Assembly (NCBI RefSeq): GCF_054482595.1
Contig: NZ_JBTHVH010000004.1
Source: a plasmid
Direction: 5' to 3' (one strand)
DNA: 64,000 nt
Within the stretch, counting starts at the first letter, position 1, and each line of letters starts with the position of its first letter. The position numbers are program-made. Shown here piece after piece: positions 51,001-57,000 of the stretch.

Positions 51001-54000
51001 TACTAATCGAAGAGGTTATTTTATGAGTGTTTCTCTTTCCAAAGGCGGGAACGTCTCCCTGAGTAAAGCAGCTCCGTCAATGAAAAACGTCCTGGTGGGC
51101 CTTGGCTGGGATGCGCGTTCAACAGACGGTCAGGACTTTGACCTGGATGCTTCAGCGTTCCTGCTGGCCTCAAACGGCAAAGTGCGCGGCGATTCAGATT
51201 TCATCTTCTATAACAACCTGACGTCATCTGACGGTTCCGTAACCCATACCGGTGATAACCGTACCGGTGAAGGTGATGGTGATGATGAATCGCTGAAAAT
51301 TAAACTGGACGCCGTCCCGTCTGATGTTGACAAGATCATCTTCGTTGTCACTATCCATGATGCTCAGGCTCGTCGCCAGAGCTTTGGTCAGGTATCCGGT
51401 GCGTTTATTCGCCTGGTCAATGACGATAACCAGACTGAAGTCGCTCGCTACGATCTGACCGAAGATGCGTCCACTGAGACTGCCATGCTGTTCGGCGAGC
51501 TGTATCGCCACAATGGTGAGTGGAAATTCCGCGCAGTGGGCCAGGGTTATGCTGGTGGTCTGGCATCTGTATGTGCTCAGTACGGCATTAACGCGTCCTG
51601 ATCGAAAAGTAACTTTTCACCCGGGGCTGTTAATGCAGCCCTCATTCAACTGTTTGCAGGAGCTAAAAATGGCAGTTTCTCTCGTAAAAGGCGGCAACGT
51701 ATCTCTGACCAAAGAAGCACCAACCATGAATATCGCTATGGTTGGCCTCGGCTGGGATGCCCGTGTAACTGACGGTCAGGCTTTTGACCTGGACGCTTCC
51801 GTGTTCGCAGTAGGCGAAGACGGTAAAGTGCTGTCAGATGCGCATTTCATTTTCTTCAATAACAAAACCAGCCCTGATGGCGCGGTAGAGCACCAGGGCG
51901 ACAACCGTACCGGTGAAGGCGACGGTGACGATGAGCAGGTCAAAATCGATCTGACCAAAGTCTCAGCAGATATCAAAAAACTGGTGTTTGCCGTTACCAT
52001 CTATGATGCAGAAGCGCGTAAACAAAACTTCGGCATGGTGAGCAACAGCTTCATACGCGTTTACAACAACGACAACGGCACGGAAATTGCCCGTTTCGAT
52101 CTGTCTGAAGATGCCTCAACCGAAACCGCTATGGTCTTCGGTGAACTGTATCGTCATGGCGCTGAGTGGAAGTTTAAAGCTGTCGGTCAGGGCTTTGCCG
52201 GTGGCCTGGCGGCTCTTGCCTCCCAGCACGGCGTTAACATCTAAAACAACGCTGAATCATACCCCGGCAATGCCGGGGTTTTTTTTGGTTGCGATCCGCT
52301 TTCAGGAGGGAGTAGTAGAAAGGGGACTGGAAATTTCAGAAAGCAGGTCATGTTAATTCAGACCTGAGCCTTTTAAAGGCAGGAAACGGATTTATCTCTG
52401 GTTGCTGGTTAAAGCCGGTATTCCGTGCCTTTTATCAACAGAATGCCCCTCTGATATATGTTACTTTTGCGGTTTATGAAGGAACGGGATCTGGAACATA
52501 AGATACCCGGTCAATCAAAATTCCAGTTCAACAGGTATAGAAACTTCAGCGTGATGAAATATGGTGTCACACCATATATACGCCTCACCAGAAATCCAGC
52601 GTCCTGAACTAAGCCTGGGGAACATATATAAGCGCTGCGCTTTAAAAATAATCAAAAATCAGGAGAGTTAATGTGAATCTACAATCCGGACAAAACATAC
52701 CGCTTCAGCAATCTGCGATCAGGCTGAATCTTCAGTACCCTGCCAAATCCGGCTTTAAAGGCGAACCCGATACCTGCCTCTTCCTGCTTAATGCTCAGGG
52801 AAAGGTAACCGGCGATTCTGACTTTATCTTTTATAATAATCTGTCTTCTCCTGAAGGGGCAGTAAAGCTCGTTACCGGTTCTCAGCAGTCCAGCATTGAG
52901 ATAGCACTGGATCGTGTTCCGGCGAACGTCAGTAAGATTGCGATCACCGTTGTCATTGATGGTGAAGATACTATCAGTGGGCTCAGTTTATTGAGCATTC
53001 AGGCTCCTGGTATCGCTGATTTTCAGGCTGAGACTCAGGGCCGCAGTGAGAAAGCAATCATCCTGGGTGAAGTATATCGGCACAATGGCGCCTGGAAGCT
53101 TCGTGCGCTCGGGCAGGGTTTCAACGGTGGTCTTGAGCCTCTGGCCATTAGCTTTGGCGTTGATGTCGCACAGCCAGCTCCGCAGCCAGCAAAGCCTGCT
53201 CGTATCAGTCTGGAAAAGAAACTTGAAACCAGATCTCCGCGCCTCGTAAGCCTCGCTAAAAAAGCCTCGGTCAGTCTCACTAAAAATAAACTGGACACCC
53301 TTGAGGCAGCGGTTGCATTTGTACTTGACGCATCCGGCTCAATGAGTGGCCAGTTCAGTAAGGGCAACGTTCAGTCTGTGCTGGACCGCATCGCCGTTCT
53401 TGCCGCCCAGTTCGACGACGACGGTGAAATGGATGTCTGGGGATTTGGAGAGAAGCACAAGAAGTATCCAAACGTCACACTGGACAACCTGGACACATAT
53501 ATTCAGTCCATTCGCGGGTCTGGAAAGCGTTCAGCCTGGGAGAACCTGCCGGGACTTGGTGGGACAAACAATGAGCCCCCTGTGATGGAAGAAATTGTCG
53601 ACTACTTTAAGGACTCGAAAATCCCGGTATATGTTGTATTTATTACCGATGGCGGGATCAGCAAGACCCGGGCGATTAAAGATGCAATCCGGCGTTCTGC
53701 CAACTACCCCATCTTCTGGAAGTTTGTCGGCCTGGGTGGTTCAAGCTACGGTATCCTCAAAAATCTGGATGACTTTACTGACCGCCGGGTTGATAACACC
53801 CACTTCTTTGCCATGGATGATTTCGGTTCGATCAGCGATGAAAAGTTATATGATAATTTACTGGAAGAATTCAGACCGTGGATCGATGAAACAAAAAGGT
53901 TAGGCATCCTGTAATACGCACAGTTTTCGCATGGTTAAAGGAGCTCTACAGCAGCTTAATACTGTAGAGCCTTTGTTCACTGGAAATCGTACAGGGAGGA

Positions 54001-57000
54001 GCATATGGACCGCATCAAGTACCTGAAATGGATAGCTGAAGAATCACCAACTGATGATGAAATCGACAACTACGATAGTATCATTAGTCGGGGCGCAGAA
54101 AGGGCCGAGAAGGTTCAGTTGTCTTTAAGACGTTAATATACGGGAGTTTAAATGTTCGCAGAAATCAAAGATAATTATTCGTTAGGTGGATAAAGAAAGG
54201 TTGCCATTACCAGCTTTCGACGAGTCGAAAATAAAAACCTTATTTATAGTGACAGGGAGTATGAGCTGACGCTTGCCAATGGAACAATAATTAAAAATGT
54301 ACTTAGAAAAGAAGAGTGGGAACTGTTAGAAAGCAATTCAATTAAGGTTATATTATAACGAAAATATATTTACAGTTTTGGATAGGTTTCAAACGAGTCC
54401 GGACATTTGTACCTGAAGTATCTGACATTACAGTTAAGTGACGATTATGTCAGCACGTCTGTTGCTGGCAGCTTAGCTATCGGTCTAAAAGCTGATCCAT
54501 TAATAATTCTTCGTAAAGCCCAGAGGTATCGGGCTTTATTACAATATCCGTTATTTCGAAGCGTTCAAGTACAAATTGCAGATATTCCGGAGTAACGTAG
54601 TAGGGATCAGGTTCAGCCAGATTAGTATAGAGTGGGTCTTCTGCTGCATTAATGTCATAATCAATGCACATATGAAACCACTGCAAAGGTGGATCCCAGC
54701 CTAACATCACCTGAACAATTCCCTGATTGCTTTTCACCTCATACCAGTGCTGGCTCATACTTAGTCCTTAAGAAAATTTGTCATCGGAAAATAACACGAA
54801 GCCTGCATCATCGAGGCGCATAACCTTCTTCCCTTAACGCCTGTTGTAATTTATCAACTGCGCTTTTCATTACCCAGGCTTCTTCGTCACTCACAGCACA
54901 ACCACGTAGATCGCTCCAGCTCAGACGTTTAACAAATTGAGCAAGGGCCATAGTTTCGTTCTCATCAAGCCGCAAACTCAGTGTCTCAATACCTTCCACT
55001 ATCTAACCTCCCTTATAATGAAAAATGGCGCTTTACTTCTGACCAGATGCCGAAGCCTTGAATGCAGCCGGAACTGTCGTTGTTTCTACTTTACAGAAAT
55101 GGAATTAAAAAGTGGTGATGCTGGGCACGTTTCTTTTCCAGCCGGGGTTTAAGCCAGAGCTGAAACTCATTCAACTTCTCAGCAGCCAAAACCGCTTCAA
55201 CGGGGAAAACTTTATATTTACCCTGTTGCTGAGGTTCACCCAGCCATCGCCTGATGGCTCCGTCAGTCCATAAACGAGTCTCTTTTAGCCTAGTTACAGT
55301 GACCCATTTTCTGGACCATTCATCAAATTGTCGCTGGCGATCCCGATAACGTTGTTCTTCCTGCTGCCGAAGCCACTCGCGATCAACAGCAAATTTTCGG
55401 TATCCAACAAAGAGCCCTTGTACTTTGGCCATGTCATATTCCGGTTGCTTAGAGTTACTCATTCAACCAAAACCTAAACGTCGATACAAACTCTGTTTCA
55501 TAACCAGGGTTTTATCCTTACCGCGACAGTAAGTAACAGGGGCTGCATAAACCGGTCATTTAGTCCGTTATGCAAAAATTATTGAGGATCCGGGCTGTTA
55601 AACTGTTCTTCCTCTTTCGCTTCCGGTGAAAAGGGGAGGTGTCACCCTGCGAGCCCGTGTAGTGAAAGGGATTCGTCGTAATACAGGCCAAAGGCTAACA
55701 TGACCGCAAAGGACGCCCGGGCGACCGGATACCTGCCGGGTTGTGCGATGTAAAATCCGGAAGCAGTGATAACACAAACAGGCCCCTACAGAGTAAGGAT
55801 TGTGATGGACGATAAAGAGCAGTTTACGAATCTTGTGGCAAAGCATGCCTCCGGACTCACCGAAGAGCAGCTGGCCGGGTACGATGCCTGTTCCCTGGAT
55901 GGTGAATGCGTCACGCCTTCATACGAGGTTTTCCGGGGGTATCGTACCCGCCACACACTGGATGAATTTCTGGAGATGGCCATATCGCTGAATGCCATCC
56001 ACCCGGATGAATATTTAACGGATATGCTGCTGAAGCCTCATGAGGTGATCGGCGCTCTGGCCGATGAAGGCGACCAGCTGAACAACGCCACCCCGGTTTA
56101 TTTCTTTCCGGATACCGGCGTCTATGCAGCGGCCGTTAGTGAAACCCGGGTGCTCGATGCCTGGCTTTGCTGGCCATGCTACCCGGCGAACTGGTAACGC
56201 GGCCGTTGGAATTGCACCGGCCGGATACGAATTTAACCGACCCCGTGGCGGGAAGGCTATCAGAGTTGCATGTCCTCATCCCTCAAGCCCCCTGCCAGGC
56301 CCCAACGTGCTGTCAGGCTTCGCCTGATTCCCGATCTGCGCCGATACTTCAGCCGATAACTTTTTGTTTTCTTTTTATTTTCTTCCCATTTCCTCAAAAA
56401 TCGCGGGCGGCGTGGACAGGGCACCATTGCCGCATGTGGGGTCTTAATAAGGGCAGGGTGGTCAGTTTTGCTCGATGCCAGGGGTAGGCCCTCCCCTTCA
56501 TGGGATGAGGACATGCAAGTAAGCTAACTATCTGAAATGACGAAGGTTAATTTGGTGAATGTCGCTTCATATTAATGTTGTGTCACTTATGATCGTATGT
56601 AGCTGGTTGCAAAGAGGAGCGATGAGACAATAAAGTTGTATCGCTAACAAGATTTATGCTGCCACATAGTAACAGCCTAAAAGTTGTACGCCCTATTTAA
56701 CAGCTTTTAGGCTGTTAATTTGATATTACAGCTTTTAGGGTGTATGTTTAGGAAACAGCCTGCAAGGTGTATCAGAGGAAACTACTGAGGCCAGCTTATG
56801 ATCAATAATGATTACCCGTTAAACACGCTCAACCAGCTGCGTCCCTTGCTCATTGGTTTTCGCAAGGCGAATGGCCTGACGCAAAAAGACCTGTCCGAAA
56901 GGTTAGGCGTCACTCAACAGACATACTCACGTCTGGAAGCCAACCCTGCCAGTGCGAGCATTGAACGGCTATTCAAGGTGTTTTCCATCCTGGGCGTAAA

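Follow-up and report, generated by a model that had tools for sequence, protein, structure and literature searches.

Genes and base composition between terF and hipBA

The DNA analyzed here, a stretch of 64,000 nucleotides (64 kb) from plasmid contig NZ_JBTHVH010000004.1 (NCBI RefSeq assembly GCF_054482595.1), which is referred to throughout as the window, carries between terF and hipBA a block of short open reading frames (ORFs) followed by a 253-nt element with perfectly complementary ends, and this block is the subject of the present analysis (Table 1). The terZABCDEF and hipBA genes on either side are treated as backbone or stability genes in the IncHI2 literature (PMC4855149). Coordinates refer to the window unless an L-number is given; L-numbers label comparison loci, among which L006 is pKPC-272 (R478-type IncHI2), L012 is p2723-384k (IncHI2), L026 is the Citrobacter freundii plasmid pNFYY328-1, L007 is an IncHI1B plasmid of Escherichia fergusonii, L011 is a MOBF plasmid of Citrobacter and L032, L033 and L048 are metagenome contigs. 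The sequence from 52600 to 58500 matched 1547 plasmid records and was 100% identical to that of E. coli plasmid pTB-nb4 (IncHI2A, MOBH), in which five 'hypothetical proteins' of 43, 93, 63, 113 and 130 amino acids (aa) are annotated between terF and hipB.

Table 1. Features of the terF-hipBA region and of corresponding regions in related plasmids (RBS, ribosome-binding site; pI, isoelectric point)
Feature	Position	Strand	Basis or remarks
terF	52673-53914		VWA/TerF; Pfam TerD and vWA-TerF-like
RBS GGGAGGAG	53994-54001	+	Originally that of orf151
43-aa fusion ORF	54005-54136	+	WP_000374059; stop codon 54134-54136
Deletion 1 junction	54052-54053		1317 bp (1.3 kb); BLAST against L032 and L026, junction sequences
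orf68 pseudogene	54152-54358	+	TAA at codon 14 (54191-54193); most AT-rich part of block
orf93	54477-54758	-	Acidic, pI 4.05; homologues
orf63	54808-54999	-	Acidic; DUF7706 family
orf113	55091-55432	-	Basic, pI 10.3; codon-position bias and homologues
Deletion 2 scar	55462-55487		About 26 bp versus 734 bp in L032; BLAST block boundaries, junction sequences
orf130	55805-56197	+	Acidic, pI 4.26; codon-position bias and family alignment
Conserved noncoding element	56266-56518	+	253 nt; perfect 17-nt terminal arms
Invariant hairpin TCAGGCTTCGCCTGA	56313-56327		CCCTG...CAGGG; 5' half of element
T-rich tract	56361-56384		5' half of element
Remnant of cassette leader	56519-56649	+	131 bp; BLAST against L012 and L032, junctions
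Deletion 3 junction	56649-56650		About 3.5 kb of protease/membrane/BnzB-like cassette missing
Four operator-like dyads	56665-56771		AACAGCC-N6-GTTGTA / ACAGC-N6-GCTGT; repeat families I1, I2, I9, D3, D7
hipB	56798-57094		Annotated in identical record pTB-nb4
hipA	57099-58424		Annotated in identical record pTB-nb4
Site-2 cassette of relatives	L006 (pKPC-272) 8914-12193; L012 1-2645		Pfam; PADLOC GajB-like
CoiA_N-domain proteins of relatives	L004 2547-3620; L033 787-1866		Homologues in L041 and L048

An earlier note on this DNA had described a compositionally distinct block after terF, AT-rich at first and then richer in guanine plus cytosine (GC) than the backbone, with short ORFs on both strands and a strong RBS before an ORF of 43 codons. 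The ORFs and the RBS, the latter just ahead of the ATG at 54005, were readily identified and the shift in composition was real, GC being 0.386 over 54051-54705 (0.356 over 54137-54476) and approximately 0.55 over 55805-56518 (0.555 in orf130 and 0.545 in the 253-nt element). Distinctness in the stronger sense did not follow. Thus, 400-bp windows across all 64 kb had a mean GC of 0.462 (standard deviation 0.070, range 0.30-0.635), and since the extremes of the terF-hipBA block were only in the 7th-18th and 88th-90th percentiles of this distribution, the composition of the block is not exceptional. A large-scale step in GC was also noted, from approximately 0.415 over 1-34000 to 0.51 across the ter region and 0.58 beyond 60000; the difference between 1-34000 and 34001-64000 indicates that the backbone itself is compositionally patchy. 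The impression that the hairpins seen upstream were missing from this block was not borne out, as the 253-nt element is bounded by a perfect 17-nt inverted repeat, TTGCATGTCCTCATCCC (56266-56282) and GGGATGAGGACATGCAA (56502-56518), with 219 nt between the arms.

Comparison of gene layouts

The comparison with an IncHI2 reference that the note had proposed revealed sharp boundaries. Thus, the window and R478-type pKPC-272 aligned in four blocks (52600-54050, 54706-55453, 55490-56518 and 56649-58500) with 94.6-97.8% identity, separated by 655 bp in the window versus 548 unrelated bp in L006 at site 1, by 36 bp versus 4.85 kb at site 2 and by 130 bp versus 3.3 kb at site 3. A fuller layout was present, intact and on one molecule, in L032, which was 99.1% identical to the window through terF. 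The order of genes in this contig was terF, orf151, a RelB-domain gene, orf92 and orf68 rightward, then orf93, orf63 and orf113 leftward, and then orf130, the 253-nt element, a cassette and hipBA rightward. Relative to L032, the window was without 1317, approximately 710 and approximately 3500 bp at the three sites, as determined by BLAST. The order in L026 was terF, orf151 with ISKox1 inside it, a RelB-domain gene of 171 aa, orf92, an ORF of 68 aa and a 3' portion of orf93, with 97% identity to the window from 54053 onward.

The 43-aa ORF arose when a deletion joined the ends of two genes, and is no dedicated small regulator. Codons 1-16 (54005-54052) correspond to the 5' end of orf151, as indicated by tblastn matches in L006, L008 and L032, and codons 17-43 (54053-54133) to the 3' end of orf92 (96% in L026 and L032, tblastn), the gene for a 92-aa CxxC...CxxC protein with which the 43-aa ORF shares its last 27 residues, DDEIDNYDSIISRGAERAEKVQLSLKR. 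In R478-type plasmids the RBS stretch, which belongs to a part shared at 96.6%, is followed by an intact ORF of 151 aa, of which the 43-aa ORF matches just the first 16 residues. This orf151 had full-length homologues with 73-76% identity in unrelated IncX1 and other plasmids and is therefore a real gene. Given that both genes are intact in L032, the 43-aa ORF is an in-frame fusion, made by a deletion, that retains the RBS of orf151. Identity of the R478 orf151 with a 151-aa gene found beside orf93 homologues in other plasmids was considered and rejected, the sequences being unrelated.

What deletion 1 took was the rest of orf151, the RelB-domain gene (171-179 aa) and the first 65 codons of orf92. 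The RelB domain was identified by Pfam (5.7e-9) on the 171-aa protein of L026. The genes for the RelB-domain protein, the 92-aa double-CxxC protein and the 68-aa protein were located at 4270-5306 of L026 and at 4740-5777 of the reverse complement of L032, and this trio is possibly toxin-antitoxin-like or regulatory. Codon 14 of orf68 is TAC in pNFYY328-1 and TAA in the window and the window-like loci L001, L044 and L049, while L032 retains an intact 68-aa ORF at this position; orf68, as judged from this stop codon, is dead in the window lineage.

At site 3, both L012 and L032 matched the window through 56649, continued into a 3.5-kb cassette and rejoined the window upstream of hipB. Loss is the economical reading of this site because the window keeps 131 bp of the cassette leader. 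At site 2, R478-type plasmids and p2723 contained an extra cassette of 4.1-4.85 kb that was absent from the window and from L032. R478-type plasmids also kept orf151 and had orf93 reduced to its first 20 codons, a remnant seen in L006 and L008, which indicates that they underwent a different deletion at site 1 and formerly had orf93 as well. The AT-rich stretch is therefore old DNA that was kept by one lineage and lost by the other, and no insertion. Inspection of junction sequences and a search for repeats identified no insertion sequence (IS), repeat or target duplication at any of the three junctions. The high-GC part of the block, i.e., orf130 and the inverted-repeat element, was common to the IncHI backbone, including IncHI1A and IncHI1B plasmids.

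These comparisons bear directly on the suggestion of a separately acquired segment, i.e., a small island that entered the DNA between terF and hipBA in the lineage of the window. Such an island would account for the sharp edges of the AT-rich segment at 54051-54705, for its difference in GC from its neighbors and for the absence of a counterpart in R478-type plasmids. Both ends of this segment, however, are truncated genes whose missing parts are found at the same place after terF and orf151 in L026 and L032. Moreover, the 20 codons of orf93 in R478-type plasmids indicate that these plasmids formerly had the gene as well, and neither IS elements nor terminal repeats nor target duplications were found at the boundaries. 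IncHI1 plasmids also have the high-GC part, and the fusion ORF contradicts insertion. We consider an inserted island very unlikely; the heterogeneity of the block and its defined boundaries relative to R478-type IncHI2 plasmids stand, while the direction of change was opposite to that supposed, with three deletions.

Thus, three pieces were lost in the lineage of the window, and the present layout is a remnant of a longer ancestral region. Deletion 1 joined the start of orf151 with its RBS in frame to the end of orf92, giving the 43-aa ORF, and placed the AT-rich orf68/orf93 DNA beside terF, the stop codon in orf68 being a later change. Deletion 2 shortened the intergenic DNA between orf113 and orf130, and deletion 3 removed a Bunzi-like cassette. 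The differences of R478-type plasmids at site 1 and the extra cassette at site 2 indicate that the spacer behaves as a hot spot of cargo turnover. That the spacer is what deletions left of a longer accessory stretch of the IncHI backbone, together with an element that acts as a folded plus-strand nucleic acid, is in our judgment probable. Two considerations weigh against this view: the direction of deletions 2 and 3, as loss here and not gain in the relatives, is drawn from parsimony and the truncated leader, and L032, the carrier of the full layout, is a single metagenome contig. In L007, 161 bp (4001-4161) comprising the end of terF and the start of orf151 (window 53892-54052, 90% identity) were found between IS903B and IS30, and the homology of this fragment stopped at the same point as the deletion 1 junction of the window.

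The window layout was contiguous in 657 of the 1496 plasmid records that matched 53915-56797 and rearranged in most others, so that the contiguity in all related plasmids that the note had named as a counter-indication was encountered only in part. Indel hot spots that distinguish IncHI2 lineages (ST1 or R478-type versus ST3-type; ST, sequence type) provide a close parallel, in that they belong to the same replicon family, have terZABCDEF and hipBA as landmarks and reflect deletions as well as gain and loss of cassettes. Unlike those hot spots, the three junctions described here are associated with no IS or transposon. The literature searched, including that on IncHI/R27, contained nothing on this region and described neither its three sites nor the fusion ORF nor the ancestral layout.

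A conserved inverted-repeat element

The 253-nt element downstream of orf130 is, from comparison of its sequences, a discrete, single-copy and noncoding unit whose 17-bp terminal pairing is kept by compensatory changes. By our own estimate, chance alone would yield approximately 5e-5 such perfect repeats in a sequence of 3.1 kb. The arms were invariant in IncHI2 plasmids of both lineages and in IncHI1A and IncHI1B plasmids, the surrounding DNA being 73-92% identical. In the diverged copies of L011, L033 and L048 the arms differed at five positions, each with a complementary change opposite. In an alignment of 12 sequences, changes on both sides were noted for 5 of the 16 pairs of the terminal helix and 99% of cells were paired, measures that were reached by none of 500 shuffles; slid controls were 31-44% paired. 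G.U pairs appeared only when the plus strand was folded. Compared with shuffled sequences, the fold of the plus strand had a z-score of -4.98 as RNA and -5.25 as DNA, whereas that of the minus strand was -2.3.

Conservation of the element was bounded and uneven. Homology between lineages started and stopped exactly at the arms, and between pECO109b and the window identity was 94-100% in the arms, 84% in the 5' half, 73% in the DNA of orf130 and 38% in the 3' half; thus, the 5' half is conserved while the 3' half is essentially free in sequence with its length kept. Proteins encoded inside the element (a 106-aa plus-strand frame, an 84-aa minus-strand frame, a UUG-started frame of 19-27 aa and a 29-aa frame from an ATG in the arm) were considered and rejected. 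The element is therefore noncoding, given that no frame has codon-position bias and that stop codons and frames differ between lineages.

Each of 1455 plasmid records contained the element at one place (1455 places in all), in one piece and one orientation in 1399 of them and likewise in approximately 20 metagenome contigs, in which the conserved 5' half was on the orf130 side throughout. With a covariance model, a single copy was located in the window and no match was obtained in the 28 other loci not already having the element, and a scan of 53500-57200 on both strands with Rfam 15 covariance models (E <= 1) returned no match. A scan of 100,044 species-representative genomes with the pattern CATCCC-N20-45-CAGGCTTCGCCTGAT gave eight chance matches, none with a second arm, and a full-text literature search for the arm sequence found no paper. 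In most cases the gene upstream of the element was homologous to orf130 (48-61% identical in L038, L041 and L048); L033 and L011 were exceptions. The genes downstream of it were of three unrelated types, with no conserved partner. The cargo slot beside the element contains Bunzi-like defense genes in some IncHI-type lineages and other genes in others.

A discrete noncoding unit of approximately 250 bp bounded by perfect inverted repeats, present even in an unrelated MOBF plasmid without orf130, could be a relic miniature inverted-repeat transposable element (MITE) with the arms as terminal inverted repeats. Dispersal was not observed, as each of the 1455 records had a single copy and the window contained no other, nor were target-site duplications, left and right flanks being different in each of the lineages examined. 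In addition, conservation of the 5' half exceeds that of the neighboring gene, although drift would be expected of a dead MITE, and the scan of species-representative genomes gave chance matches only. We regard a MITE as improbable. The position of inverted repeats around approximately 220 bp immediately upstream of variable, mostly plus-strand genes would also suit an invertible promoter switch (inverton) for the downstream cargo. Orientation relative to orf130 was nevertheless identical in the 1399 records and approximately 20 metagenome contigs, no recombinase was annotated between terB and IS26 in pTB-nb4 and no convincing promoter was seen inside the element; an inverton is accordingly the least credible of these explanations, with hardly any likelihood. 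An integrase gene was noted approximately 4 kb from the element only in some IncHI1 relatives. Both the MITE and the inverton explanations fail several defining tests.

More serious is the alternative that the element functions as duplex DNA at the edge of the cargo slot, either with its arms as identical protein sites (for a looping repressor, a recombinase or a nucleoid-associated factor) or as a cruciform. Perfect and co-varying arms, lineage homology that breaks exactly at the arm ends, an interior with little covariation of the RNA type and a conserved 5' half that could hold more protein sites are consistent with such a function. On the other hand, the arms changed at five positions in three lineages with no co-varying partner protein identifiable nearby, the neighbors differ on both sides of the element, no recombinase gene is annotated near it in the window and no inversion product was found in the 1399 records. 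Duplex function appears rather unlikely, and the element is most likely a structured RNA or a single-stranded DNA (ssDNA) element.

As a structured RNA or ssDNA element, the plus strand, which is the strand of orf130, would fold, as RNA or as transferred ssDNA, into a domain closed by a stem. The perfect terminal helix would probably be the processing or stabilizing stem of an RNA of approximately 220 nt, which would be excised from read-through transcripts at a point immediately upstream of the slot for variable cargo. Tentatively, and as a possibility that we hold to be less than even, the element may represent an undescribed family of plasmid structured RNA (or transferred-strand ssDNA), in which the covarying 17-bp helix would excise or stabilize a domain of approximately 220 nt at the upstream edge of the exchangeable cargo slot, and this domain would govern the expression or exchange of cargo. 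Several points weigh against a folded plus strand. The individual folds agreed in no more than the terminal helix and a single invariant hairpin, the interior helices had little covariation and minimum free energy structures differed between lineages. Compensatory changes in the arms would also result from the binding of a single protein to the two arms as DNA. Finally, there was no promoter, terminator or transcript evidence for the element.

Among known systems, hok-family type I toxin mRNAs have 5' and 3' ends that pair by folding back. Long-range perfect pairing of the ends, a unit of a few hundred nucleotides, coupled covariation and location on plasmids are features that the element has in common with these mRNAs. 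It differs from hok/sok in having no conserved small hydrophobic toxin ORF, no frame with third-position bias, no visible Sok-like antisense promoter and no Rfam match. RNase III stems excise RNAs from longer transcripts, as with rRNA precursors and the early RNAs of phage T7, and by analogy the perfect 17-bp helix of the element brackets a discrete unit whose conservation begins and ends exactly at the helix; outside the arms, no conserved promoter belonging to the element was visible. The helix of the element is, unlike RNase III stems, shorter than two full turns, and the reading of it as a cleavage site is one by analogy. The element is unlike a retron noncoding RNA in that no reverse transcriptase domain was found in any neighbor, in the window or in relatives. 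An Frpo-type ssDNA promoter, as found in plasmid leading regions adjacent to oriT, is a long hairpin with -35 and -10 boxes restored in its stem; the plus strand of the element folds well as DNA by the z-score given above, and no -35/-10 pair was seen in the 17-bp stem.

Four intact small genes

Between the remnant of orf68 and the element lie orf93, orf63, orf113 and orf130, all of which are, by their conservation, real and intact genes. Ten full-length or near full-length homologues of orf93 were found at 68-80% identity, and orf113 had 113-aa homologues with 55-67% identity in Xenorhabdus, Vibrio, Brenneria and Klebsiella. At codon positions 1, 2 and 3, the window differed from R478-type plasmids by 1/1/5 substitutions in orf63, 1/1/10 in orf113 and 0/0/7 in orf130 (4/4/30 in terF), a concentration at third positions that indicates purifying selection on the three small genes. 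The corresponding numbers for orf130 were 6/2/11 against IncHI1A and 23/18/51 against L010.

Assignment to families was possible for orf63, which matched DUF7706 (PF24806) over the whole domain (E = 1.1e-25, 89.9 bits versus a gathering cut-off of 27, positions 7-63 of 63); since this family is without known function, membership says nothing on mechanism. For orf93, orf113 and orf130 there was no Pfam, PHROGs, NCBIfam or PADLOC defense family of note beyond weak noise matches, such as the JetB-like PADLOC match of orf113 (E = 6.6e-5), which was the only one for this protein. Profiles of the anti-restriction families ArdA, ArdB/KlcA (PF03230) and ArdC/ArdcN did not match these three proteins, and PDB sequence searches with orf93, orf113 and an orf130 profile gave nothing meaningful. 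The AlphaFold2 model of orf130 (predicted local distance difference test score, pLDDT, 78) had no fold match in the PDB, and that of orf93 was poor (pLDDT 62). The orf130 family is small, with 31 clusters among 1.84 billion representatives, and has a C-terminal motif, VWLSWPxYPxGW, in which WLSWPxYPxGW is the invariant signature.

Homologues of orf130 were on conjugative elements in every case. In one integrative and conjugative element (ICE), the homologue was located between an RNase_T-domain gene, with an ArdC gene next upstream, and a TraI_2 relaxase gene, in a cluster that also held an ArdB/KlcA-type gene and a DUF7706 gene (orf63 homologue, 33% identical). Others were inside an F-type type IV secretion system (T4SS) operon and in a RadC/ParB_N small-gene array beside trfA. 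Homologues of orf93 and orf113 were in arrays of small unknown plasmid or ICE genes. A conserved operon or partnership of orf113, orf63 and orf93 was looked for in other elements and not found.

The four genes appear typical of the 'dark matter' of conjugative elements and possibly encode establishment or anti-defense factors. The more specific suggestion, in line with the anti-defense proteins proposed in the note, is of an anti-defense or establishment module of acidic, DNA-mimic-like proteins made early after transfer. It draws on the strong acidity of orf93 and orf130 and on the company of DUF7706 and orf130 homologues, namely ArdB/KlcA, ArdC and the TraI_2 relaxase in the ICE and, for other orf130 homologues, the RadC/ParB_N arrays and the T4SS operon. 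The absence of any match to an anti-restriction, PHROG, PADLOC or PDB family, the lack, in other elements, of a conserved operon of the three leftward genes and the location of the region next to the ter cluster in IncHI2 argue against such a module, which we consider doubtful. The anti-defense hint comes from essentially one ICE context, and none of the four proteins matched a family of known function. What stood of the original proposal was the neighborhood of homologues in that ICE; among proteins of the window, no match to an anti-restriction or defense family was found.

Cassettes of related plasmids and the region upstream of hipB

Bunzi is a two-gene anti-phage system that consists of BnzA and BnzB (Millman et al., bioRxiv 10.1101/2022.05.11.491447). 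The site-3 cassette of L006 codes for a trypsin-like protease, a membrane protein of 165 aa and a protein of 462 aa that was identified by PADLOC as BnzB (E = 6.5e-53, L006 15526-16914), while the membrane protein matched part of BnzA (E = 1.6e-6). A BnzB-profile protein was present at this spot in R478-type plasmids, p2723, L032 and pKLO00015_4. The cassette of these relatives resembles Bunzi in its BnzB-profile protein and in a membrane protein that matches part of BnzA, and differs from it in that the BnzA-like part is split into the trypsin-like protease and the 165-aa protein; no Pfam match to the TerB domain, a trait of BnzA, was found in it. In the window, 53915-56797 contained no BnzB homologue and BnzA was absent, leaving only the leader remnant at 56519-56649.

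The cassette between orf113 and orf130 at site 2 contained an 84-aa ORF and genes for a UvrD/GajB-like helicase of 679 aa and a CoiA_N-like protein of 328 aa. The latter pair looks like an uncharacterized two-gene defense candidate. In IncHI1-type contexts, a gene for a CoiA_N-domain protein of approximately 360 aa (CPGC...H.H motif) was also a recurrent feature, located upstream of orf130 and the inverted-repeat element at a distance of a few kb, and in L033 the CoiA_N-domain gene was directly upstream of the element.

The four dyads at the right-hand end of the block, directly upstream of hipB, are probably HipB operators. They differ from the operator consensus of E. coli K-12 hipBA. A half-site related to these dyads, AATAAAGTTGTATCGCTAACA, was noted at the deletion 3 junction (56629-56649), preceded by a three-codon mini-ORF with a good Shine-Dalgarno sequence (ATGAGACAATAA, 56622-56633). 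The same half-site was tandemly duplicated upstream of the Bunzi-like cassette in L012 (4390-4425) and in the reverse complement of L032 (8797-8840), hinting at a shared regulator-binding motif. A 68-aa ORF after hipA (58485-58691) had a weak PHROG match (phrog_23179, E = 6e-4) and no other annotation.

Implications for IncHI plasmids

Taken as a whole, the terF-hipBA block has a mosaic structure that is ordinary for a plasmid, and one conserved element in it is modestly novel. More than 1400 sequenced multidrug-resistance plasmids carry this inverted-repeat element, which surpasses the adjacent gene in conservation and has no Rfam family. A strong RBS followed by a short ORF can be the scar of a deletion instead of a small regulator, and a step in composition can signal loss as well as gain. 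The dominant IncHI2 lineage of E. coli and Salmonella has apparently lost a Bunzi-like defense cassette and a RelB-domain gene, both of which are kept in other IncHI2 lineages, and this difference is relevant to comparisons between lineages of plasmid fitness and phage interactions.

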